Shown here: positions 22,267-34,537 of the stretch, one piece after another
Position numbering within the stretch: position 1 is the stretch's first letter
How the letters are laid out: each line of letters begins with the position of its first letter
Source of the DNA: an uncultured bacterium
Lineage (GTDB): Bacteria; Armatimonadota; UBA5829
Assembly: GCA_938074205.1 (NCBI GenBank)
Contig: CALJES010000012.1
Location: forward strand, 278,840 to 342,839
Direction of reading: 5' to 3'
DNA length: 64,000 nucleotides
Notes under the pieces: model-generated
Database searches by the model: none
Told to the model about the DNA's origin: nothing
Seen by the model: the letters and a program-made list of their open reading frames with translations, nothing else
Translations under genes and position numbers: made by a program

Positions 22267-25200
22267 ATGTTCAAACGGAATAAAGTGGCGAAGAAAATGG
22301 GTGCTCCAGCATTTTCCAATCAAGAAACGACAAGACGATTCATAGATAACTGTATCAGCGCATTGGAAGACGAAATCCAAGCCGCTGAACACACCGGAGG
22401 TTCCAAAAGGACAGTCGCACTAGCTAACGGACGCTTTCAAAGAACGATTGATCGAACTCATATATACGTGTTTGTAGCATCTGATGGCATGCCGCCGTCC
22501 TACGAAGATGCTCCTGTGCAAATATTGGTTTCAGGACAGGAGATAGACGGATCTGTTGTAGGCATAGAGGAGTTTGAGGTGATAATTGCTCTCGAAGAAT
22601 ACGTGGGAATGTACGTAGCTACAGCAGAACTCGTCGTCGACCTAACGTTCATACTTGAGAAGCTCAGAGAGCTTTTGACTGAGCGGGCCTCTGCTTTAGA
22701 GGTCCACGATGTAACCCTGAAAGTCTTTGGATTTGGTCAGCCACGTATCTCTTTAAGTTCTGCAAAACACCTTTCTGCTGACGAATGTTACATGAACGAA
22801 GCCCAGAAGCACGCATTGGGCAAGTGTCTAGGCAGCGACTTCGTAATGGTTTGGGGACCTCCCGGTACAGGAAAAACGCACGTTTTGGCGAGGGTTCTCG
22901 GCGAGCAGATTTTGCAAGGACAGTCCATTGCTCTACTCTCGAACACTAACATCGCTGTAGACCAAGCGCTTGAGCAGCTACTTAAACTCTGTGAAAATAA
23001 CGAAAGACTCAAGTGTTTGAAAGACGAAGGAAAGATAATACGCTTGGGCACACCTCAATTGGAAAGCGTCTTATCCATTACTCTCGATAGGATGGCTGAA
23101 CGCATAGCGTCCCAATTGAAAGACGAACTAACAAGGCTAAAGCGGCGCCGGGATAGACGAACTAAACGCTTGGAACAAGTGAGGTCGAGGATTAAAAGGC
23201 TTAGGGAATTGCTGGAGTTACATCGTAGACTCAATGAAGTAGTGGACTCGGAAAAACGCATTGCCCACGAGCTGAAAAAAGTGTGCCACCAATACCACGT
23301 GCTTGCAGACGAGCTTCTTGCGCTAAATTTGCGACTGTCCGTCATCCAAAAAAGGCGCCGCCTGCTACGCCTGATATACAGGTCCAAACAGCGCCGCTTG
23401 GAGCAGCTCGTGACTCAAAAAGAAGAGGGTTGCAGAAAAATAAACGAGAATATGCGTAAGTTAACCGAAAAAGTCTTGGCTCACCGCGCTGAGGTCGAAA
23501 AACTTCGCCAACGGATGGCCACCTTGACAAATGGCGTAGTCGATCCAGCGAAATGGGAAACCTGTCTGGCTCGGCTTACAAGTCTTGAGACGAGGCTACA
23601 AAATGAGATGGCCATCTTCGCAGCGAGAATCCACGAGCTTGAAATCGCTCTCCAGACAGTTGAAGCAAGAATTCTTAACGAGGCTCTCCTTGTAGGGTGT
23701 ACCTGCGCTAAGAGCACCCTCGACGTTAATGTCAGTAGCCGTAGGTTTTCAACGGTGGCTGTAGATGAATCCAGTATGGTCTCCCTTCCGCAAACACTCT
23801 GGTGTACGAACTTGGCTAATAAAAGGTTCCTTTGTTTTGGGGACTTTCGCCAGTTGCCACCGATCACCTTGATCAAACCAGATTCTGGGCAGGAGTCATA
23901 TGAGATCATGCATAGTAGCATATTCGAAAGACATCGGTTGGGCGAGAGTTTACAGGACGCCCTTGGGGATCCGCGGGTAGCTTTGCTAAATGAACAATAT
24001 CGTATGAATCCAGAAATATGTGAGCTCGTGAACAAATGGATGTATGGGGGCCGCTTGATTACGGTACCTGGGACCGGCTGCGGAGCTATGCTGTCCCAGG
24101 ATCCACCTCTTGCACTGGTTGACACGTCGTTATTTGGTGCATGGAGCGACAAGAACGCGGATTTTTCGTGGTACAATTGGCACCACGCATTTGTGGTGCT
24201 GGAACTCGTGCGAGAATTGAGAAATGATTCAGGTGCCCAGGCAGATCAAGGTGCGCTAGTGCTGATACTTACGCCGTACCGCGCTCAGGTTCGCCTAATT
24301 CGAGCATTGCTGGAAGAAGCAGACCTTCAAGAGAACGCGAGAGTATCAACCGTCTGGGGTTGCCAAGGAACAGAAGCAAGCGTTGTCATATTTGATACCG
24401 TGTGTGCCCCTCCGTACAGCAAACCGGGACGATGGTTTCTGCATGAACCGGGGCCAGCGGACGGTGCCAGGTTAATTAACGTCGCCATAACAAGAGCCAA
24501 GGACAAGTTGTATATAGTGGGGCATAGGCAGCACCTTGTGCGGAGCTGCCCATCAACCGCGTTCATAAGGAAAATTCTGGATTGCTTAATCGCAAATGAC
24601 CATATTATCGATTCACGGGAAATCGCGAAAAACTTGATACCGGAAGAACCAGCCGACGATGGTGGCTTTCCTATTGGCGCATTTGGGACTGCCTCGTTCA
24701 AGTTGTTCGACCAAGAGACGTTTCTAGAGGCGTTTATAAGCGATCTTTGTCAACTTCCGCCAGGATCGCGGATAACCATCTTCCGGCCGTTCTTAAGTGG
24801 GGAATCCTTTGCACGTTGCAAGTCGCATTTTTGCACATTGCTCAAAAATGGCTGCAGCATCGAGCTATTTACACGAGATCGCTCTGCGCAGAACAGGGGC
24901 AGGCCACTCGACGCTGTCGATTCTATGATTGATGAGCTGGAAAGATTGGGGGCAAAGGTTGGGATAGATTCGTATCTGCGGGGCCAAAGATTCGAGCACC
25001 ACAAGTTGGCTTTTCTCGAGTACCCGCAGGAATCAGACCGAAGAAGCGAACCTGTTATCTGGATCGACAGCAAAAGGATTCTTGGTCACCGCTCTGGTTG
25101 GGAGACTATGCTGCGAATTCAGTCGCGCAATGTGTACAGCGTCTTTGCGAGTATCATCGGTTTAGAAGACCGGCGCAAGCACGTACCAGTACACGTTTTG

Positions 25201-25521
25201 ATAAGCAAACTGGAGAACACACTTCAGCGACAGCTGCAAGCAATTTGTCCTGTTCACAAATTACACATGAAGCTTCGTTTCTCGGTTAGAAGTAGTAAAA
25301 AGTCATTTTTTATGTGTTGTCCTACGTGGAGCAAAAGCAGATGTGACCAGAAGATGAATGTGTCGGTTGAAGAGCTTAACAAAGCTCTGGAGTTCATTCG
25401 GGCGACGTGCTTGGAACCCGGCTGCGACGCTCCGTTGGATGCAAGACGAGGTCGTGAAGGCATATACATAAGGTGCTCCGAAGGACACTATGTCCCCCTT
25501 ATTTCATACTTCCGTAGATAA
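22267..25521 (+). CDS. Upf1-like (DNA2/NAM7) SF1 helicase with a roughly 250-aa coiled-coil insertion and a roughly 330-aa C-terminal region with an HxK motif and a Cys/His cluster.
   Basis: Helicase motifs are I 'GPPGTGKT', II 'VAVDESSMV', III 'GDFRQLPPI', IV 'LNEQYRMNPEI', V 'ILTPYRAQV' and 'VWGCQGTEASVVIFD', and VI 'INVAITRAKDKLYIVG'. A heptad-rich Arg/Leu/Glu segment sits between motifs I and II. The C-terminal region contains 'FEHHKLAFLEY' and 'CCPTWSKSRC...CLEPGC...CSEGH'. Confidence 0.7.
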   Translation: MFKRNKVAKKMGAPAFSNQETTRRFIDNCISALEDEIQAAEHTGGSKRTVALANGRFQRTIDRTHIYVFVASDGMPPSYEDAPVQILVSGQEIDGSVVGIEEFEVIIALEEYVGMYVATAELVVDLTFILEKLRELLTERASALEVHDVTLKVFGFGQPRISLSSAKHLSADECYMNEAQKHALGKCLGSDFVMVWGPPGTGKTHVLARVLGEQILQGQSIALLSNTNIAVDQALEQLLKLCENNERLKCLKDEGKIIRLGTPQLESVLSITLDRMAERIASQLKDELTRLKRRRDRRTKRLEQVRSRIKRLRELLELHRRLNEVVDSEKRIAHELKKVCHQYHVLADELLALNLRLSVIQKRRRLLRLIYRSKQRRLEQLVTQKEEGCRKINENMRKLTEKVLAHRAEVEKLRQRMATLTNGVVDPAKWETCLARLTSLETRLQNEMAIFAARIHELEIALQTVEARILNEALLVGCTCAKSTLDVNVSSRRFSTVAVDESSMVSLPQTLWCTNLANKRFLCFGDFRQLPPITLIKPDSGQESYEIMHSSIFERHRLGESLQDALGDPRVALLNEQYRMNPEICELVNKWMYGGRLITVPGTGCGAMLSQDPPLALVDTSLFGAWSDKNADFSWYNWHHAFVVLELVRELRNDSGAQADQGALVLILTPYRAQVRLIRALLEEADLQENARVSTVWGCQGTEASVVIFDTVCAPPYSKPGRWFLHEPGPADGARLINVAITRAKDKLYIVGHRQHLVRSCPSTAFIRKILDCLIANDHIIDSREIAKNLIPEEPADDGGFPIGAFGTASFKLFDQETFLEAFISDLCQLPPGSRITIFRPFLSGESFARCKSHFCTLLKNGCSIELFTRDRSAQNRGRPLDAVDSMIDELERLGAKVGIDSYLRGQRFEHHKLAFLEYPQESDRRSEPVIWIDSKRILGHRSGWETMLRIQSRNVYSVFASIIGLEDRRKHVPVHVLISKLENTLQRQLQAICPVHKLHMKLRFSVRSSKKSFFMCCPTWSKSRCDQKMNVSVEELNKALEFIRATCLEPGCDAPLDARRGREGIYIRCSEGHYVPLISYFRR

Positions 25522-25540: not shown

Positions 25541-27004
25541 TTACTCGGACGAATTCGCCAACAGCTCGCATATCTTGTTCTGCACAGCCGTTGCAGCGCT
25601 ATTTGGGCAAGGGTGGTTGTTCATCAGTATGGAGAATACCAGCGGTTCGCCGGACTTTGTTGTGAGGTAACCTGAGAGACTGCTTACTCTGCTTAAATAC
25701 CCCGTTTTTGCGCGAACGTTGTTCTCCGCAGACGTGCCCTTCATCCTATTCTTCAGAGTGCCGTCTACGCCGGCCAACGGTAGCGAATCTATGAACGCAC
25801 GGGCATGCGGATGACGATACATATGACTCAAAAGCTCAACCAAGCTCCTCGCGGTCACACAGTTCAGCCTGGAAAGACCCGACCCGTCGGCTATATAAAT
25901 GCCGCCGAGGTCAATGCCTATCTGAGTCATGAATTCCTTCTCGACTTCACGGCCGCACTCAGCTGAGCCCTTTCCCTTAACAAATGCGCCCAGCGTTTTT
26001 AGAAGAATCTCAGCTATGAGGTTGTCGCTGGGCTTGTTGAGAAGCTCGAGAATTTTCGATAACGGTGGGGAAACATGCTCGCACAGCAACGTTGCATCGC
26101 TCGGAATTTTGCCGCGTTTAACTTCACCCTCCACTACTATGCCCTGCTTGTGAAGTTCATTCTTAAACACGTGACCAGTGTAAAGAGCCGGCTCGTGAAT
26201 GGTAATAATCGCTTCCGAGGCAGTAACTTTCGTCCCCACAGGTATGCTACCGCCCGCTCGGATTATATTGGTGCCCAGAACCCTATAGACCCAGACGGTT
26301 TTCTGTGAATCGGTCTCTCCTGTTATCGGACAGCTCTCAATCTGCAAGAACGAGTTGACGGGATCCAGTTGCACGATTGCTGGATCCCCAGGTTTCTTGC
26401 CAGGGTAGACCCACACGTTTACGACGTTTCGGTTAAGGTTCAGCGCAGTTATCTCTGCTGAGTAGTAATAACACAGGTCGTTCCACGGCCAACCTGTTCC
26501 AAGCCGACAGTCATCAAATAGAGAATCGTCCACGATCAAATCACCCGTTACCTTCTTGATGCCCTGGGTTTTCAGTTTTTGGGCCATCTCCACCAGATCG
26601 TTGGTTTCCAGGGTCGGATCGCCGCCGCCCACTAACGCAATAGAACCCTTGACCAAACCGTGTGGGTTCACTGGCGCGCATGTAAACACCTTGGTGACGT
26701 ATGTAAAATCCGGCCCCAGGCGGTCAAGCGCGGCAGCAGAGACTAGGAGCTTCATATTTGAAGCCGGGATCATAGCCAGATCAGCATTCCGTTCATACAG
26801 GGTTTTGCCAGTCTGCAGAGATTTTACCAAGACTGCTTGGATGCCGTGATTTAGGTTCGGATCGGCGAGCATTTGATCGATCTGGTGATGCAGACTATTT
26901 GCTTGTGCATAAGTCGCAATCCAAACCGCGAGAATGCACCATAGGAGTACTAAGCGCGCCCTGCGATACGAGACTGCTGATAGTCTTCGATTGCTCCTGT
27001 TCAT
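25541..27004 (-). CDS. dacB: D-alanyl-D-alanine carboxypeptidase/endopeptidase (peptidase S13, PBP4/DacB).
   Basis: A signal peptide is followed by the S13 active-site region 'PASNMKLLVSAAAL' (SxxK). Confidence 0.8.
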   Translation of the reverse strand: MNRSNRRLSAVSYRRARLVLLWCILAVWIATYAQANSLHHQIDQMLADPNLNHGIQAVLVKSLQTGKTLYERNADLAMIPASNMKLLVSAAALDRLGPDFTYVTKVFTCAPVNPHGLVKGSIALVGGGDPTLETNDLVEMAQKLKTQGIKKVTGDLIVDDSLFDDCRLGTGWPWNDLCYYYSAEITALNLNRNVVNVWVYPGKKPGDPAIVQLDPVNSFLQIESCPITGETDSQKTVWVYRVLGTNIIRAGGSIPVGTKVTASEAIITIHEPALYTGHVFKNELHKQGIVVEGEVKRGKIPSDATLLCEHVSPPLSKILELLNKPSDNLIAEILLKTLGAFVKGKGSAECGREVEKEFMTQIGIDLGGIYIADGSGLSRLNCVTARSLVELLSHMYRHPHARAFIDSLPLAGVDGTLKNRMKGTSAENNVRAKTGYLSRVSSLSGYLTTKSGEPLVFSILMNNHPCPNSAATAVQNKICELLANSSE

Positions 27005-27526
27005 CTAGCTCAACTCCATTGGCTACTGCCGGTGTATACCATTCGCTTCGATACCATGCCTGTCCATAAGTTAGTGAAGCCGGTTTAGCCCGCTAGGCAT
27101 CGAACGATGCCGTGTGTGAAACGCTTATAGTAATATGGTCTGGAAAAACAGACGATTGCTACCTTGCTATTCACATTATACGCCAGCCTGGACAGCAAAA
27201 GCTGGCGCGAACACCGGATGTCGCAAAATTTATCTCATTCTCCTCACCTTCGAGCACCTTGGAAGCTATTGGAATGGCAGTCGGAGTAAACCACCGATGG
27301 TCATTTCAAAGTTTGATATCTACCGTTTACGGCTCAATGTGAAAGTTCTTATCCGCATCATCCAGGCGGCAAAGCGTATCCTGAGCTGACTCCAGTCCCT
27401 AGTGAATGCCAGGGTCAAGCTAAGGCGAACTCTTCCAGGTCATTGCTAAGTCCAGCGGACAGGTGTAGGGTGACTTTTCTTTTGTATAATGCGGTGCAAA
27501 TGCGCTGGATGCAGGATCAAAAACGC

Positions 27527-28099
27527 TCAGCTGCGTCGCTCTCTTACGGGCCCAAGGGATATGTCTATGTCATCAGTCAGAAGCTCAGAACCACTCTGTC
27601 GCGCCTGGATCTCACCGCGCCTAGAATCCTCAACTGTCAGCAGGATAGAGCGTGTTCCTAAAGGAAACGATTTTTGATTTCGGCGCGCCCAAGCCGCAGC
27701 ATCTTTGTTTACGGGGCTTGCCAAGTTGTAGCTTTTGTACTGGATCATATCGGCGATGTGAACAATGACATCTACCAAAGTAACACCAGGAGACCAGTAA
27801 TCGCCTATGCAGACGTAATCTCCTATGTTCGGGTGCCATATCGGGGTGCGCATCGTGCATCTTGGACCCTGCCTCGGGTAACCGGTCGACAGTACTATAT
27901 CCACAACGTGCTTCTCTGACACCACAGCTCTACTCGATGCCTCATCCCAAACAAGTCCCGTCAGCCTGTAAGTAACTCGGTAATACCAAGGCGGGTTACC
28001 CTGAATCGGTTCTACACACACAAACTCGTTGCCGGAAAGTTCCGATAAGATCTTTTCGTATTCGCGACGCAGACGCCTTGTCCGAATTGTCTCGCTCAC
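27527..28099 (-). CDS. Prokaryotic ubiquitin-conjugating enzyme (E2/UBC fold) homolog.
   Basis: The UBC signature is 'RLRREYEKI...YPRQGPRCTMRTPIWHPNIGDYVCIGDYWSPGVTL'. This gives the HPN motif, a candidate catalytic Cys 7 residues later, and WSP. Confidence 0.75.
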   Translation of the reverse strand: MSETIRTRRLRREYEKILSELSGNEFVCVEPIQGNPPWYYRVTYRLTGLVWDEASSRAVVSEKHVVDIVLSTGYPRQGPRCTMRTPIWHPNIGDYVCIGDYWSPGVTLVDVIVHIADMIQYKSYNLASPVNKDAAAWARRNQKSFPLGTRSILLTVEDSRRGEIQARQSGSELLTDDIDISLGPVRERRS

Positions 28100-28114
28100 G
28101 ATACCGCACCTGCC

Positions 28115-29536
28115 TCACTTTGGCTTTCCCAGACTTGCGCAGATACGCTTGACCTTCCGCCGGTCGCTTTCAGACAGCGCATGGAAAAGTCTGTCATACG
28201 GCTCTTCGCGACAGATCACTCCGTAAGCTATCTCCCGACTTCGTTCACCGCGTAGCCACCGAACAGCTTTCTCATGCCAAGCGTTCGAACCATGCTCGTC
28301 ATGAACAGCTACGCTTAGCTTCAGCGACCGCACAATGTCCCTTACGCGGCAGGCTCTCTCGATCCGCTTCTCACGGCTTGCAGCCGCCCGCTTGTAGACT
28401 TGGAGGGCTTGTTTAACGTAGTCCGGCGAGGCTACAATAATATCAGGTCGACGACTATTGGATGTGAATGAGCTTTCTATGTCTTTCACCAGCGACGGTT
28501 CCTGCGCCCGCGGTAGCTGCCGGGCGAGACGCGCCGCTGCAGCTAACTGCAAGTTGATTCTATCGAGCTTTTCACCCTCTTCGTTGCCAATTTCGCTATC
28601 GGACAGCGCCGCGCTTACACGCTGAAACTCCAAAAACGCTTGTCGGTTTTCCGGGTTAGCTGAAAGTTCGAGCCTAAGCAACCTCTCACCGCCTGTAAGA
28701 TCACCTATCGAAAGCATTTCAATAGCGGTTTCCAGGTACGTAGTAGGATGTGTTGCCTGCCTCCCGCGGAAAACGACAAGCCACAAAGCGATCTGCGAAG
28801 CCGCCAATAGTATAATTAGTGACCAGATAATCCCAGGAACTCTACCGACGTTAAGGCGATTATTCATTTGTGCTGGTCCTCTAGCCGTGACCGTGGAATG
28901 ATCTGACGTTGCAGATAGCTCCCTCATACATTCCCGCAGTGCTTCTTCATTGCTGCGTGGGGCGAATACATAGAATCCGGAAATGCGTACAAGAGACTCC
29001 TGCGACCACTCAAAAATAGCCCATTCGCCCAACTTGGAGTCGACAACCATCGCTATCTGGTAGGAATCAGCGAAGTAGTGCTGGTGAATGAATTCGTCTT
29101 CCTTGGAAAGAAACGCTCCTAGCCCTGGGTGGCTGTGATACCAACCAACGATTCTCTCGCGTGAGTACCGCTGGGCAAGCTGCGCGTGCACCTGCTCCCA
29201 AGCCTCGTGGGTGAAAGTGAGCGATATACCGGTGCTTTCGGCCATCTCTGCTCGGATAATGTCGTTGACCTGAATAAAGTAACCCCTGCCAAACTTGCAG
29301 AACTCGCCTACCAACACTCCGCCGAGCTCACGCTCCGGATCTGCGAGAAGATGTTCCCTAATTGCCCGGACAGCTTGTTCACTGATGAAAACGGGATACA
29401 AATCATCGGCCGGCTGACCGCACGCGCAAACTCTCATCGCCCTGTTTTCAAGTGGGCTCTTTCTTTTGACGGCAGATAAGCGAGTTGACCTGCCTAGCTC
29501 CAGTTGTATGTCGTCGTTCTCTTCTTCGCGCTGCAT
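28115..29536 (-). CDS. JAB/JAMM (MPN+) metallo-isopeptidase with a TM helix and a roughly 220-aa C-terminal extension.
   Basis: JAMM motifs are 'ELGGVLVGE', 'HSHP' and 'SKED'. The predicted TM is 'VPGIIWSLIILLAASQIALWLVVF'. Confidence 0.75.
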   Translation of the reverse strand: MQREEENDDIQLELGRSTRLSAVKRKSPLENRAMRVCACGQPADDLYPVFISEQAVRAIREHLLADPERELGGVLVGEFCKFGRGYFIQVNDIIRAEMAESTGISLTFTHEAWEQVHAQLAQRYSRERIVGWYHSHPGLGAFLSKEDEFIHQHYFADSYQIAMVVDSKLGEWAIFEWSQESLVRISGFYVFAPRSNEEALRECMRELSATSDHSTVTARGPAQMNNRLNVGRVPGIIWSLIILLAASQIALWLVVFRGRQATHPTTYLETAIEMLSIGDLTGGERLLRLELSANPENRQAFLEFQRVSAALSDSEIGNEEGEKLDRINLQLAAAARLARQLPRAQEPSLVKDIESSFTSNSRRPDIIVASPDYVKQALQVYKRAAASREKRIERACRVRDIVRSLKLSVAVHDEHGSNAWHEKAVRWLRGERSREIAYGVICREEPYDRLFHALSESDRRKVKRICASLGKPK

Positions 29537-29554
29537 ACTCTCGAATGTGTCGAT

Positions 29555-30061
29555 TCAGATCACAAGCCGGATCAAGAAGACGATCCCGCTTGAGCTGATA
29601 CTGAAGAGCACAACCGCTGGTCCAAAGCAGTTTTCGAAAAAGCGGTTTTCCCTAGCTGTGAAACGACAGTGCACACAAATGATCTGATTCTGCTTCACCG
29701 GTCTTCCGCACTTTATGCACCGCAGAGGCTGATCACTTTCGTCTGTCAGGTCTGTAGGCGCAATGACAATACGGCCCTCTGCAGTAGGCGAAATGCGATC
29801 AGAGATCTGCCGGTTCCATATTGCCCAACCGTCGCAGCCGTATACAGAGCAGCGGCCGTTGGACTTCCAGCACTCAGCATGATGCATTACGCCGCACTTG
29901 GGACAGCGTATCGCTTCTTCTTTCGATTCGATCGGACTTAGACAGTATGGGCAGTTCAGGCTTTCGTTTGTTGATCTCACCTTTCCACTCGATCGAACGC
30001 TTTGGGTAGTTGGTCTATGGTATCGAGGCTGCCGGTAGGAACCGCCGCCACTATCAGCCAA
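29555..30061 (-). CDS. Membrane-anchored C4HC3 RING-variant-like zinc-finger protein (paralog 2), with a second CxxC...CxxC ribbon and a C-terminal TM.
   Basis: Cys/His spacing is 'CPYC..(13)..CPKCGVMHHAECWKSNGRCSVYGC', then 'CIKCGRPVKQNQIICVHC', then the hydrophobic tail 'AVVLFSISSSGIVFLIRLVI'. The 5' end overlaps the upstream paralog by 85 nt, so the true start may be internal or non-ATG. Confidence 0.5.
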   Translation of the reverse strand: MADSGGGSYRQPRYHRPTTQSVRSSGKVRSTNESLNCPYCLSPIESKEEAIRCPKCGVMHHAECWKSNGRCSVYGCDGWAIWNRQISDRISPTAEGRIVIAPTDLTDESDQPLRCIKCGRPVKQNQIICVHCRFTARENRFFENCFGPAVVLFSISSSGIVFLIRLVI

Positions 30062-30459
30062 GCTAACAGAACTGCTGAGACGAGCAACATAATCAGTATA
30101 GGTCCCACGTTCTTTGCGTCCTGGTGTTCTAGGATAGATGTGGGCCTACACGTATTGCAGTAGAGTTCCCCTGGAGGAACCTGCTTCCCGCAGTGCACAC
30201 ACGGGTTGGAAACGCTCATCGCTTTTCTGTTACTTGCAGATTCGACTGCCTCACGCGTTAGAAGGAGTCTACTCCTTGCCGGTGGTGTATCGAAGTTGAT
30301 TTCGATTATCCGTCTTGCTTTGGGACATTCCTTTGCACAGCAGCCGCGGTGCTCTTCCCAACAATCGAAGTGATACACCGAGCCGCATGCGTCGCAGGTC
30401 ACAGTTTTTTCCTGCAGGGCAATTTCGCTCATACAATAGCGACAACTTCTGTCTGCCAC
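29977..30459 (-). CDS. Membrane-anchored C4HC3 RING-variant-like zinc-finger protein (paralog 1).
   Basis: Cys/His spacing is 'CRYC..(12)..CDACGSVYHFDCWEEHRGCCAKEC', then 'CVHCGKQVPPGELYCNTC', then the TM 'ILIMLLVSAVLLAWLIVAAV'. Confidence 0.55.
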   Translation of the reverse strand: MADRSCRYCMSEIALQEKTVTCDACGSVYHFDCWEEHRGCCAKECPKARRIIEINFDTPPARSRLLLTREAVESASNRKAMSVSNPCVHCGKQVPPGELYCNTCRPTSILEHQDAKNVGPILIMLLVSAVLLAWLIVAAVPTGSLDTIDQLPKAFDRVER

Positions 30460-30509
30460 TTCTGCTCACGTGTTAAAGTCGTTTGCTACGCGCCGCGCAA
30501 GCTATTCTC

Positions 30510-31721
30510 TTACGAACCCGGCAGTACGGATTTGGCATCTGATGATATCTCAATCTGCACGCAGCCTCTTTGCGATACCGCAGGAAGAATCTCCAATTGA
30601 CCAAAACCAAGCTCTTTTAGTGTGATATCTTCGTAGGGCGCGCCGCGCATATACTCGACATCTACTTCCGGCAGTCGCTCTGCGCCGCAGTCGGGACATC
30701 TTGCCTCTTCAGCGCGGATGCTATGTGCCAATCGGTAGAACGGTTGCGTGGAGCCACACCGATTGCACTTAAGTGATTTTACCATCTCAGAAGGTAGACC
30801 AATCACAGGGTTTGCACCCACGTAACGTGTTGCGAGATCCGCAACCTCAGCCAGCGTTGCTGATTCGCTGTTGAGCTGGGTTTCTACGATGTTTTCGAAC
30901 AACTCGTGGCTCATGCAGTCTTCGTTTCTCACGTAGTCAATAATGAAGCAGTCGTAGGTTGTGGCGTCAAAGTAGAAAGCCTTCCCGACCAGGGTAGGGC
31001 TCAGCCTCTGTCCTGGCGTTTGCAGGCAGGAGCGCGAGTGCAAGAGCTTTACGGCTTCGTGTACCTGGATGCCGGCTATTATGGATGCCATTGTAGGCGT
31101 CGTAGGAGTCCTGTCTTGAATATGAGCTTGAGCTGCCAGGATACCGCACGACTCACGCCACGCCATAATTTTTCTGTCCTGTTCGCCGAGCGTACACTCG
31201 TAGCAAGGGGTATCTGGGGGCACGAAGCTGCGCACAATACCGCGAGTGTCATCGACCGCTCCATCTACCCAGGGTGTGCCAACCTTCCAGCAAGCTCGGT
31301 TGATTGCAAGCCGCGCCTCACGGTTATCCAGTCCGCCGATCACGACATCCACGCGCCTGAAAATGCCAAGACCGATGTCCCTAGTTACATCAGCCTCCAG
31401 GCCGATGAACCGGCAGTCAGGATTCAGCGCCTCAGCTGCGCTCGCCGCTACTTGGGCTTTGGGCTTGCCTTCGTCTTGGGCTCTGAATAATGGACTTCGC
31501 GAAAGGTTGGAGAGCTCAACACGATCGAAGTCGACTATGATCACCGTCCCTGCGCCCAATAGTGCAAGGTTCTTTATTATCTCATTGCCAAGCGCACCGG
31601 CTCCAACGACCATGATTGATGCGGCGCGTAGGACGTCTTGGTTCCACCAGGAGATCAAGCGTAAACGCCAATATCGATCTTCTCCGATGTCAATCGGGAA
31701 GTGGGATTTCTCAGCAGACAC
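30510..31721 (-). CDS. E1-like adenylating enzyme (ThiF/MoeB/UBA family) with a C-terminal zinc-ribbon extension.
   Basis: The nucleotide-binding motif is 'VVGAGALGNEIIKNLALLGAGTVIIVDFDRVELSNLSRS'. CxxC is 'CYEC', and a later ribbon reads 'CNRCG...CPDCG'. The gene overlaps the Ubl gene by 11 nt. Confidence 0.8.
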   Translation of the reverse strand: MSAEKSHFPIDIGEDRYWRLRLISWWNQDVLRAASIMVVGAGALGNEIIKNLALLGAGTVIIVDFDRVELSNLSRSPLFRAQDEGKPKAQVAASAAEALNPDCRFIGLEADVTRDIGLGIFRRVDVVIGGLDNREARLAINRACWKVGTPWVDGAVDDTRGIVRSFVPPDTPCYECTLGEQDRKIMAWRESCGILAAQAHIQDRTPTTPTMASIIAGIQVHEAVKLLHSRSCLQTPGQRLSPTLVGKAFYFDATTYDCFIIDYVRNEDCMSHELFENIVETQLNSESATLAEVADLATRYVGANPVIGLPSEMVKSLKCNRCGSTQPFYRLAHSIRAEEARCPDCGAERLPEVDVEYMRGAPYEDITLKELGFGQLEILPAVSQRGCVQIEISSDAKSVLPGS

Positions 31722-31998
31722 AAAAGCACCCGCCTGCGGTGATCTCAGGTATTAGTCTGAGAACGTCCCCGTCTAGGACGTTGCATTCTGAAAGCGTGAG
31801 ATTGTCCAGCAAATGCCTGCCGGTTCCTTTGTGCAGGAGTTTGTAAGAAATCGGCGCGCCTGCGGTGTTGACCACTGGTAGGTAAAGAACCTCGACTAGT
31901 TTGTCAATAATTCTACTGATAGGCACGTCGTCTGGGAGCGTCGCATCTTGTTCTTTGCTTCCCGTTACGTCTATGATTGTGACGTTAACCTTACCCAT
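31711..31998 (-). CDS. Ubiquitin-like beta-grasp protein (95 aa) ending in ...AGG followed by a CFCVC tail.
   Basis: The beta-grasp pattern is 'KVNVTIIDVTGSKEQDATLPDDVPISRIIDKLVEVL...GDVLRLIPEITAGG'. A penultimate diglycine precedes a 5-residue Cys-rich extension. It is the first gene of the operon and overlaps E1. Confidence 0.6.
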   Translation of the reverse strand: MGKVNVTIIDVTGSKEQDATLPDDVPISRIIDKLVEVLYLPVVNTAGAPISYKLLHKGTGRHLLDNLTLSECNVLDGDVLRLIPEITAGGCFCVC

Positions 31999-32171
31999 TG
32001 GTGTTCACATTCCAATTCGGTTAATATTTCAGACGTTACATCGAGCAGAGTTGCCGAGATCTTGGCGTCCGCGTATTCGCCGCACCGCGGAAACCTTCCC
32101 TGCTGTATTATACCTCATTCCGTTAGTAAGATTCTTGGCGAATCAACAGGGAAGGGATGTTTTGCAGTACG

Positions 32172-32200
32172 TTGACAACCGTAAAACCTGATGTTATTCT
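32172..32200 (+). promoter_or_regulatory. Candidate sigma70 promoter (TTGACA-N17-TATTCT) for the GAF-PP2C gene, followed by a GC hairpin in the 5'UTR.
   Basis: I read ttgaca at 32172-32177 and tattct at 32195-32200. The hairpin CCTCGCGC...GCGCGAGG lies at 32201-32234. Confidence 0.3.
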
Positions 32201-32248
32201 CCTCGCGCTGCTGGTCTGAGTCGCGGCGCGAGGCAGCAAAAGAAGAAC

Positions 32249-34537
32249 ATGGAGAAACAGTCAATGCTCAAGGGAGTAGCACGCGCGGATGGGAGTGATT
32301 TCCCTGAAGACAGATACACTGCTATAGTGGCGCTATCGCATCTTTCTGAGAGGTTGGCTTCCGTAGAGTCGAAAAAGGCTTTCGTCATAGCTGCAGAAAC
32401 GGCCGCCACCTTGCTCCGAATGTCTTCTGTGCTCATATTTACAAAGGAAACCGACGGCCGGCTTGAGCTCCAGGCAGTGTATGCTGATTCGGCATCTGAA
32501 GAACTGGTCAGCGCATCGGGCAAAATAGCTCAGGAAGCGCTGAGTGTCAGCTCGCCGCTTTTGATTCCCAACACCGCGGCAACATCTTCTACTGCCGCGA
32601 AAATTATCCAGCGCAACGGGGTAGCGTCCTTGATATGTGTGCCAATGAGAATCGGCGGAACGGCATTGGGGGCGATCGTATGCCTTTCCGAGCAGGTCCG
32701 CAGTTTTTCACCGAGAGACATCGAACTCTTACACGTGATCGCATCTCATGCTGCCATAGCGGCGATGCGAACGAGAGCAGGCACCGAACGGCAGACACTA
32801 CCCAGCAGCGATGATCTTCTGGCGCTTGCGGACAGAAAGATTCGAGAGCTCTCGCTTCTCAACCAAATAAGCGAGGCAATGAACTCCACGTTGGAGCTCG
32901 ATGCGGTGCTCGACATCGCTTTGGAAGAATGCCTCGCGGCGATAGACGCCGACGCCGGCTCGCTGATGTTGATAAACGAGGATACGGGCAAGCTTGAGAT
33001 CGCGGCGTCGCGTGGTCTGCCGGAGGAACTGGTCGAGTCTACCTCGCAGGAGATCGGGCAGAGTATTGCCGGCTGGGTGGCTGAGCACGGTGAGAGCGTT
33101 CTCGTTACGGACGCACGCAATGACGACCGTTTTGAGATGCCATTCTATCGCGATGCCATCACTTCGTCCGCCTCGGTGCCGCTGAAGTCCAGAAACGGCT
33201 GCATTGGCGTGCTCAACGTTAACACTACGCGGCCTGATCGGATCTTCGACGAACGCGACCTCCAGTTTCTACAGACTATAGCAAACCAAATGGCTGCTGC
33301 TATCCAGAACGCCAGACTCTACACGCGCGTTCGCCGACGAACCCAACAACTCGACGGCTTGCTGAGGGTTTCGCGCAGCGTGACCTCCACGCTGAGCTTG
33401 GAAGATCGCTTGAAGCTCTTGAGCGAGGAAATGTGTAAGCTGCTGGAGTTTGATGTCTGCGTGATATTCCTAGTGGACGAAATTACAGGCAGGCTGCGGC
33501 ACGGAGTCGGCAGAGGGCTGAGAACGCGCTACAGATTCACCTACTATAACTTAGCAAATCCTCTGGCCCAGAAGGTTCTCAAAACGCGCAGAACGGTGTA
33601 TTTGAAGGATATCAATTCTTCGCCCACTGCGGCAAGCGATGTGTCGAAATCGGAGCGATTGACGTGTGCATTGGGACTGCCGCTGAGGAGCAATGGGAGG
33701 ATAGTAGCTGTTGCAACGCTTTTCGCTCGGGCTCCGCAAGAGCTACCACCGTCCAGACGTGCAGCATTGAAAATGCTAGCCGACTTGGCGGGCGTTGCCA
33801 TACACAACGCTTTGGCATATCAAAATAAGTATAGAGTGGCTTCATTGGTTCAAAGCAGGTTGGTACCCGCCGACGCCCCGACGGTTGACGGGCTCGAGAT
33901 AGGGCATAAGTTCTTCTCGGTGCGCGAGGTGGGCGGCGATTACTACGATTTCATTGTGCTTAATGATCGGCAGATCGGGATTGTAGTCGCCGATGTTTCG
34001 GGAAGCGATGTAGAAGCTGCCGAACACACCGCCATGAGCAGGCATGTTATACGTGCCTACGCACGGGAGTTTCCGCGTCCCGCTGATGTGCTCTATAAGA
34101 CGAACAACGTTATTTGCGAACTGACAAGTGCCGAGACGTTCGTAAGTGCATTCTACTGTGTAATCGACTTGGGTCGCGAGTGCTTCACGCACGCCAACGC
34201 CGGCTGTGAACCCCCGCTTCTCTACTGCGCAGCTCACGGAAACGTTCGGGACCTGCACACAAGCGGTGTTCTGCTCGGAGTAGCTGCAGGAATGCAATAC
34301 GCGGAGCAAGAGGTGTCCTTCAGATCTAAAGACGTTCTTGTCGCGTTCACCGACGGTGTAACTGAAGCATCCTGTGGTAATTCTCGTTTTGGAACGGACG
34401 CAGTGAAGCGCGTATTGTCGGCTAACGCTCATCTGGGTGCCCAGGCGATCGCGGACAAGCTCTTCGACGCTATTATGGAGTTTACCAACGGCAAGGTTTC
34501 CGATGACGTAGCGGTAGTCGTGGCAAAACGAGTGTAG
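32249..34537 (+). CDS. Multi-GAF-domain PP2C-type serine phosphatase (SpoIIE/RsbU family).
   Basis: The 762-aa product has 3 or more GAF-like segments. The C-terminal PP2C/SpoIIE domain carries 'GGDYYDF', 'VADVSG' and 'FTDGVTEA'. Confidence 0.75.
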   Translation: MEKQSMLKGVARADGSDFPEDRYTAIVALSHLSERLASVESKKAFVIAAETAATLLRMSSVLIFTKETDGRLELQAVYADSASEELVSASGKIAQEALSVSSPLLIPNTAATSSTAAKIIQRNGVASLICVPMRIGGTALGAIVCLSEQVRSFSPRDIELLHVIASHAAIAAMRTRAGTERQTLPSSDDLLALADRKIRELSLLNQISEAMNSTLELDAVLDIALEECLAAIDADAGSLMLINEDTGKLEIAASRGLPEELVESTSQEIGQSIAGWVAEHGESVLVTDARNDDRFEMPFYRDAITSSASVPLKSRNGCIGVLNVNTTRPDRIFDERDLQFLQTIANQMAAAIQNARLYTRVRRRTQQLDGLLRVSRSVTSTLSLEDRLKLLSEEMCKLLEFDVCVIFLVDEITGRLRHGVGRGLRTRYRFTYYNLANPLAQKVLKTRRTVYLKDINSSPTAASDVSKSERLTCALGLPLRSNGRIVAVATLFARAPQELPPSRRAALKMLADLAGVAIHNALAYQNKYRVASLVQSRLVPADAPTVDGLEIGHKFFSVREVGGDYYDFIVLNDRQIGIVVADVSGSDVEAAEHTAMSRHVIRAYAREFPRPADVLYKTNNVICELTSAETFVSAFYCVIDLGRECFTHANAGCEPPLLYCAAHGNVRDLHTSGVLLGVAAGMQYAEQEVSFRSKDVLVAFTDGVTEASCGNSRFGTDAVKRVLSANAHLGAQAIADKLFDAIMEFTNGKVSDDVAVVVAKRV

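Follow-up and report, generated by a model that had tools for sequence, protein, structure and literature searches.

The 64,000-nucleotide stretch of DNA analysed here (hereafter the window, whose numbering is used for all coordinates unless a locus is named) comes from contig CALJES010000012.1 of an uncultured bacterium of the Armatimonadota. Two adjacent genes at 29555-30459, which we call RING-A and RING-B, encode members of the Pfam family Prok-RING_1 (PF14446), and we consider it fairly likely that both proteins are E3-like components of a self-contained six-gene operon for the conjugation of a ubiquitin-like protein (Ubl). The six genes are tightly spaced, lie on the minus strand and follow the order Ubl, E1, RING-A, RING-B, JAB and E2; the Ubl gene, of the YukD type, lies upstream of the RING pair, which has the E1 gene on one side and the JAB and E2 genes on the other. 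An earlier note on this DNA, made from its letters and open reading frames (ORFs), had singled out the pair as tandem paralogues and candidate E3 ligases in just this position. The gene map and the Pfam assignments bear out the position, and the paralogy holds as well, with a shared architecture at 28% identity. An E3 function is also the accepted prediction for the family, in which both proteins score above the cut-off. The E3 reading is thus the standard one; it is probably right, and it is not a discovery.

In RING-A (29977..30459, 160 amino acids (aa), GTG start), a Prok-RING_1 finger is followed by a conserved linker, a zinc ribbon, the motif QDAKNxGP, a transmembrane (TM) helix and a tail of about 20 aa. 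RING-B (29555..29980, 141 aa, GTG start at 29980) has the same type of finger, then a helix, a zinc ribbon, one conserved Cys and, at its end, a TM helix. The ligands of the finger are C6-x2-C9-x12-C22-x2-C25-x4-H30-x2-C33-x6-C40-x4-C45 in RING-A (aa 6-45, 30325..30444) and, in the numbering of the 141-aa protein, C10-x2-C13-x12-C26-x2-C29-x4-H34-x2-C37-x6-C44-x4-C49 in RING-B (aa 10-49, 29834..29953). Both sets were checked in the translation; C40 is taken as the RING-A ligand because C41 varies among its orthologues. The C4HC3 order that the earlier note gave for both proteins stands, while the spacings given with it were off by one in places. A second ribbon, CxxC-x10-CxxC, is found at aa 87-104 of RING-A (30148..30201; invariant Cys, weak Zn_Ribbon_1 and DZR matches in Pfam) and at aa 88-105 of RING-B (29666..29719; Pfam DZR 9.4e-05, below the cut-off). 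Each protein has one strongly hydrophobic C-terminal segment, predicted to be a TM helix, at aa 121-139 in RING-A (30043..30099; mean Kyte-Doolittle hydropathy 2.96) and at aa 123-141 in RING-B (29558..29614; hydropathy 2.3), where it is a putative anchor that forms the very C-terminus. AlphaFold models both of these segments as confident helices; the ribbon and the single helix had been suggested before. When a regular expression for the finger was run over the six-frame translation of the window, it matched exactly twice, at RING-A and RING-B, and it had 0 matches in 100 shuffles of the window.

Conservation was assessed in 56 B-type sequences and in 34 aligned A-type sequences, out of 37 A-type homologues found. 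A single-sequence search with RING-A returned only two proteins, and the rest were found through an alignment built from the neighbour genes of RING-B loci. The two types are distinct orthologous groups. In both, the eight finger ligands and the four ribbon Cys are invariant or nearly so, though the sequences otherwise share about 40-50% identity (among the 56 B-type sequences, overall identity amounts to about 40-55%). Thus, the conservation of the cysteines in homologues, on which the earlier proposal depended, was borne out. Among B-type proteins, 56/56 have C26, C29, H33, H34, C37, C44, C49 and the four ribbon Cys, and 55/56 have C10 and C13. Among A-type proteins, C22, C25, H30, C33, C40 and C45 are invariant, as are C87, C90, C101 and C104 of the ribbon, and the conservation of C6 and C9 is at least 90%. 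Conservation of this kind rules out a chance ORF.

Each type also has features of its own. The RING-A linker reads LLLTREAVESA, with LVLSREAVESA as the A-type consensus, and A-type proteins carry the QDAKNxGP motif before the helix and the tail of about 20 aa after it. B-type proteins share an invariant VYGCDGW motif and a long helix after the finger, and they end three or four residues past the hydrophobic helix. This C-terminal helix is present in all A-type orthologues and is conserved in the B-type ones. RING-B has, in addition, a 13th Cys outside both zinc sites, Cys118 (29627..29629), which lies in the motif E/D-N-C-x-G-P directly before the TM helix; it is found in 55/56 B-type sequences, and A-type proteins have no Cys there, but QDAKNxGP instead. 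Position C1+2 is conserved as Tyr or Phe, and ligand 6 is immediately followed by Trp in 55/56 B-type sequences, a position that varies in the A-type.

Family membership is supported by the scores of both proteins. With a gathering cut-off of 29.1 bits, PF14446 gives 30.7 bits for RING-A and 37.2 bits for RING-B, and a precomputed match to the same family exists for nearly all of their homologues. Both proteins also show the C4HC3 ligand order and the gene neighbourhood of Ubl, E1, E2 and JAB that characterise the family. Bacterial Prok-RING_1 members are reportedly described in Pfam as having a TM helix, and here this trait appears as a prediction, namely a hydrophobic C-terminal segment with a confident model helix in both proteins and in their orthologues. 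The earlier note had likened the fingers to RING-CH/MARCH or PHD fingers, and neither likeness survives. The hidden Markov model (HMM) of the PHD finger (PF00628, cut-off 24 bits) gives RING-A 17.7 bits (E=0.0037), which is below its cut-off, and has no match for RING-B, and the PHD spacing differs as well. For RING-CH, the RINGv HMM had no match in the Pfam search even at E<=1, and the spacing of that class (C3-x-C4, a long H spacing and C7-x2-C8) is unlike the C-x2-C-x4-H-x2-C-x6-C-x4-C seen here.

Structural models point in a similar direction. AlphaFold models RING-A with a mean pLDDT (predicted local distance difference test) of 83, with values of 86-97 in the finger and a helix at 118-139, and RING-B with a mean of 76, with about 83-87 in the finger and a helix at 119-140 whose values are 92-97. 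The modelled finger has two short strands (19-21 and 28-30 in RING-A; 23-25 and 32-34 in RING-B) followed by a helix, with a third strand in RING-A. The top Foldseek matches in the PDB are exclusively PHD, RING/RING-H2, FYVE and LIM fingers, for example MLL3 PHD6, EL5, RNF24, RNF126 and Pygopus, all with E >= 0.09, and PHD fingers are matched no better than RINGs. A profile-to-PDB sequence search ranks RING-H2 ligases first (EL5, E=0.006; Pirh2, E=0.012) and PHD fingers after them. These comparisons would place the finger domain among the binuclear cross-brace fingers, leaning towards RING, with no single score significant. As for how widespread the domain is, a profile search of 1.84 billion cluster representatives returned 4152 at E<=1e-3, 145 at 1e-10 and 12 at 1e-30, and many of the 4152 have several fingers or other architectures. 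The finger domain is therefore common, whereas the orthologous group described here is narrow.

The gene order Ubl-E1-RING-RING-JAB-E2 is found in the window and in loci L003, L004, L006, L008, L009, L016, L018, L019 and L020, and the same order, cut by a contig end, is seen in L005 and L007. In all, the six genes with both RINGs were counted in at least 10 further complete loci. Whereas the genes on either side of the operon vary, the RING pair stays in its place between E1 and JAB in at least 11 loci. The loci with informative titles belong to metagenome-assembled genomes (MAGs) of Armatimonadota (L006, L009, L010 and the MAG behind L001), and the others to metagenome contigs or to MAGs named only 'uncultured bacterium'. 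The operon is flanked by PBP4 in the window and by FeoB/DtxR, a glycosyltransferase, a phosphoribosyl pyrophosphate (PRPP) synthetase or S1/CoaE in other loci. Because these flanking genes differ between loci, we regard the operon as a self-contained module.

A decayed version of the operon was also found. In the Armatimonadota MAG GCA_052743535.1 (L001:4463-5780 and L002), a locus syntenic with the window has a Ubl gene that breaks off after about 57 aa; of E1, RING-A and JAB only short stretches are left, and E2 is missing. The RING-B ORF is intact there, though two near-invariant positions are substituted (G42R and S45F). The sister locus L016 (3029-7464) has the full operon intact, and between the RING-B genes of L001 and L016, 39 codons differ synonymously and 23 non-synonymously.

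The starts of both RING genes had to be revised. The overlap of 85 nucleotides (nt) between them that the earlier note described is an artefact of ORF calling, as it arises only when the furthest TTG start (30061), which gives the longest ORF, is taken for RING-B; what the window holds instead is a 4-nt overlap of start and stop, GTGA at 29980..29977. The RING-B homologues are 139-142 aa long in 41/49 cases and longer (143-156 aa) in 4/49. Among 27 aligned homologues, two have slightly extended N-termini, by 1 and 5 residues, and the others start no more than one or two residues away from GTG 29980. In addition, the start codon of the second RING gene overlaps the stop of the first by 4 nt, or abuts it, in 7/8 related loci: the junction is ATGA in L003, L004, L005, L008 and L016 and GTGA in L006, the closest relative, and in L007 the stop stands directly before the ATG. 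Because of these lengths, N-termini and junctions, we place the start of RING-B at GTG 29980, so that its product is likely to have 141 aa, and not 168. The two genes are predicted, from the same junctions, to be translationally coupled. In the case of RING-A, the start must be GTG 30459 because the orthologues keep the first CxxC. The public protein for the same genome (P0050, 151 aa; region L017:4001-4456 / L017:4457-4896) starts RING-A at Met10, loses the first CxxC (30433-30459) and has no Pfam match, and the public gene calls of this genome contain no RING-B gene (29555-29980). Thus, with one gene truncated and the other omitted, the E3 candidates of this genome were missed by automated annotation.

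The partners of the RING pair appear to be intact. The Ubl precursor (31711..31998, 95 aa) is a beta-grasp protein of the YukD type (Pfam YukD 3.8e-14) whose C-terminus (31711-31728) reads ...EITAGG followed by CFCVC. Its orthologues have a common ...EITAG and then 0-13 unrelated, variable residues, with one of them ending directly after AG; such a constant motif with variable tails implies a pro-Ubl that would be trimmed to a C-terminal glycine. The E1-like adenylating enzyme (30510..31721, 403 aa; Pfam ThiF 1.2e-53) combines a ThiF domain with a C-terminal extension that contains a CxxC...CxxC ribbon, and it is kept at the same position in all related operons. The JAB/JAMM metalloprotease (28115..29536, 473 aa; Pfam Prok-JAB 5.6e-11, JAB 1.9e-10) has an intact HxHx7Sx2D (JAMM) motif from aa 134 and a single predicted TM helix at about aa 235-256 (about 28769-28834). 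A single TM helix is present at about aa 230-256 in 6/6 orthologues examined, in agreement with the membrane anchor that the earlier note had assigned to the protein. Its C-terminal region of about 215 aa (within 28115-28834) has no family match, is helical-looking and rich in charged residues, and would be extracytoplasmic if the protein spans the membrane only once. The E2 (27527..28099, 190 aa; UBC fold, Pfam UQ_con 1.8e-10) has HPN-x6-Cys and a WSPG loop, and its orthologues keep the HPN, the catalytic Cys and WS(P/A)G; the WSPG loop is the site where canonical E2s contact RINGs. Judging from these motifs, the remaining cascade of JAB, E2 and Ubl looks competent.

Some observations concern the surroundings of the operon. 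A promoter and terminator scan of 27000-32400 did no better than chance and is uninformative as to where the operon begins and ends. The window also contains, at a distance of about 2 kb from the operon, an ORF of 1084 aa on the plus strand (22267-25521) with a P-loop GPPGTGKT, which resembles superfamily-1 helicases and has a Cys-rich C-terminal end. In L003:7473-10278, L004:7591-10426 and L020:7180-8432, a gene for a DtxR-type iron-dependent repressor and FeoB come next downstream of the intact operon, an adjacency that may reflect only the shared ancestry of the three genomes.

Family context and the archaeal precedent discussed below suggest how E2 binding, stimulation of transfer, topology, heteromer formation and targets might fit together. 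The membrane-anchored JAB would trim the tail of the Ubl precursor after ...ITAG(G), and E1 would adenylate the exposed glycine and hand the Ubl to the catalytic Cys of E2. The C-terminal helices would hold both RING proteins at the cytoplasmic face of the inner membrane, and the putative cross-brace fingers would bind E2~Ubl and promote its discharge onto lysines of membrane-proximal targets or of the RINGs themselves; the modification could be reversed by JAB. It is reasonable to think of a membrane-proximal system because JAB also has a conserved TM helix. Furthermore, RING-A and RING-B probably act as a 1:1 pair, since their genes are, by prediction, translationally coupled and are nearly always co-inherited.

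Several observations weigh against an E3 function of the pair. One related locus, L010, carries only the B-type gene, and the features with which canonical RINGs contact E2s (a hydrophobic residue at C1+2, Trp or Leu on the central helix, Pro after C7, and a linchpin Arg or Lys after C8) are partial: the aromatic residue at C1+2 and the Trp behind the sixth ligand are there, but neither a C-P-x-C last pair nor an obvious linchpin Arg is present. The domain family is also large, with many other architectures among its 4152 cluster representatives at E<=1e-3. A literature search found no experimental work on any bacterial Prok-RING_1 protein, and according to Burroughs et al., some prokaryotic RINGs reportedly have no part in Ubl pathways.

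The fingers could, for instance, be membrane-anchored receptors or scaffolds that are not ligases but bind Ubl, E2 or targets, much as PHD, FYVE or UBP fingers bind peptides, while the E2 transfers the Ubl directly. Their role would then be to localise the cascade or to read out conjugates. It is in favour of this explanation that the typical RING features, the CPxC last pair and the linchpin Arg, are missing, that PHD and FYVE fingers stand level with RINGs in the Foldseek ranking, that the C4HC3 ligand order is that of PHD, and that some bacterial Ubl systems, such as Bil and CBASS type II, function with no E3 (PMC10557695). We regard a receptor or scaffold role as possible but unlikely.

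The E3 reading also has a more elaborate form, to which we give little credence at present: RING-A and RING-B may form, at the bacterial inner membrane, a tail-anchored heterodimeric E3 in which RING-B, with Trp38 and Cys118, is the active subunit, possibly through a thioester relay, and RING-A has a specificity or regulatory role, the two tagging membrane proteins together with JAB. If true, the heterodimeric E3 and the anchored JAB would amount to a bacterial system for tagging membrane proteins, analogous to endoplasmic-reticulum-associated degradation (ERAD) or to MARCH.

A related explanation, which seems very unlikely to us, would make RING-B a thioester-forming E3 of the RBR or RCR kind, whose finger docks E2~Ubl and whose non-ligand Cys118 relays the Ubl, with RING-A as a non-catalytic partner. 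RBR ligases have the order RING1, IBR and catalytic Cys, which the finger, zinc ribbon and conserved Cys of RING-B loosely recall, and the retention of Cys118 within E/D-N-C-x-G-P in 55/56 B-type proteins, together with its absence from the A-type, would suit such a role. However, neither Pfam nor Foldseek nor the profile-to-PDB search gave a sequence or fold match to RBR, HECT or RCR modules, and the segment around Cys118, at the membrane interface, is modelled with low confidence (pLDDT ~65); the residue could equally be structural, metal-bridging or a lipidation site.

Least probable of all, and given very little weight by us, is that RING-A and RING-B are zinc-binding membrane proteins unrelated to Ubl conjugation that merely lie inside the operon (ZAS-like anti-sigma factors or ribbon proteins, for example): an N-terminal zinc domain with one TM helix is indeed a common layout of bacterial regulators, public pipelines name such proteins 'Zn-ribbon protein' or 'ribosomal protein L40E', and the domain family occurs in many other architectures, but at least 11 loci have the pair in the same place, between E1 and JAB, despite varying flanks, the genes are predicted to be translationally coupled inside the operon, and in one relative in which E1, JAB and E2 have decayed, RING-A is lost and RING-B is substituted at near-invariant positions. 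ZAS-type anti-sigma factors in particular were set aside: the Pfam match is to another family, and the called genes next to these loci did not include one for a sigma factor.

With the pair read as E3-like components of a Ubl-conjugation operon, the question remains as to what this operon adds. Predictions of complete bacterial cascades with E1, E2, RING E3 and deubiquitinase date back to 2011, and reconstitution has been achieved only for the archaeal version. Being compact, well conserved and provided with many sequenced relatives for mutagenesis, the operon offers a practical way to put a candidate bacterial RING E3 to a first biochemical test, and it is also suited to asking whether Ubl tagging exists at the bacterial membrane. 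The fixed A/B tandem pair in Armatimonadota, the anchor at the extreme tail of RING-B, the additional Cys118 and the corrected gene starts may be new. Novelty beyond this, which the earlier note had implied, is not supported. Prokaryotic RING fingers in Ubl/E1/E2/JAB operons were reportedly described by Burroughs, Iyer and Aravind (Mol Biosyst 2011), who are said to have proposed that YukD-like Ubls are conjugated by them, and the Prok-RING_1 family was reportedly defined in 2011 by this same gene neighbourhood, with its members predicted to be E3 ligases. The family, the C4HC3 order and the Ubl-operon context are all on record in more recent publications (PMC11354881; PMC10557695), and bacterial cascades are still called rare and uncharacterised (PMC10557695).

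Among known systems, the closest is Prok-RING_1 itself, for which the summary in PMC11354881 gives a C4HC3 order with a lengthened last ligand pair. The proteins studied here share the HMM match, this ligand order with the lengthened last pair, and the operon partners, including a YukD-type Ubl. They differ in being two diverged paralogues (28% identity) in a fixed, coupled tandem pair, each with a C4 ribbon, and in the 13th Cys of the B-type. A related finger occurs in Planctomycetota, Phycisphaerae, Gemmatimonadota and Eisenbacteria as the C-terminus of a soluble protein of about 190 aa with an FHA-like N-terminal part (L011:3641-4210, L012:17-589, L013:3626-4195, L014:3590-4195 and L015:3647-4204). 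These fusions carry the related CPxC...RCPRCGVxHH finger and adjoin E1, E2, Ubl and JAB genes in the order RING-E1-E2-Ubl-JAB; L012 and L013, where the locus reaches that far, are the only ones in which JAB itself was matched. In contrast to RING-A and RING-B, they are soluble, without a TM helix, have the finger C-terminal to the FHA-like region, are present in a single copy and follow another gene order.

An experimental precedent is available from an archaeon. The operon of Caldiarchaeum subterraneum, which encodes ubiquitin, E1, E2, the RING protein srfp and Rpn11, has been reconstituted in vitro, and conjugation requires the RING protein (PMC5654768; PMC6043591). In both systems, a compact operon encodes an E1, an E2 of the UBC type, a JAMM protease and a small RING protein, together with a pro-Ubl that carries a tail at its C-terminus. 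The archaeal srfp, however, is described as a soluble protein of the RING-H2 type and its Ubl is close to eukaryotic ubiquitin, whereas here we find two C4HC3 fingers that are predicted to be membrane-anchored, a YukD-like Ubl and a JAB that is predicted to be membrane-anchored too.

Among bacterial systems, BilABCD and CBASS type II, with its Cap2 and Cap3, use the same E1, E2, Ubl and JAB-type chemistry but have no RING E3. PADLOC models gave only generic or partial matches to E1 and JAB domains and nothing for the RINGs, E2 or Ubl, and NCBIfam scores were far below their cut-offs, with no system- or family-level match to Bil, CBASS type II or 6A-MBL. The genes seen beside the operon are housekeeping genes and not obvious defence genes. 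As for eukaryotes, RING-CH/MARCH proteins, Doa10 and Hrd1 have a cytosolic cross-brace finger tethered to a membrane, an arrangement like the one predicted here, and MARCH and Doa10 also use the C4HC3 ligand order. The proteins studied here differ from them in the spacing C3-x2-C4-x4-H, in C7-x4-C8 after a six-residue loop, and in having a single tail anchor instead of multiple TM helices. Their likeness to the membrane-bound RING E3s of eukaryotes is thus one of functional analogy and not of membership.

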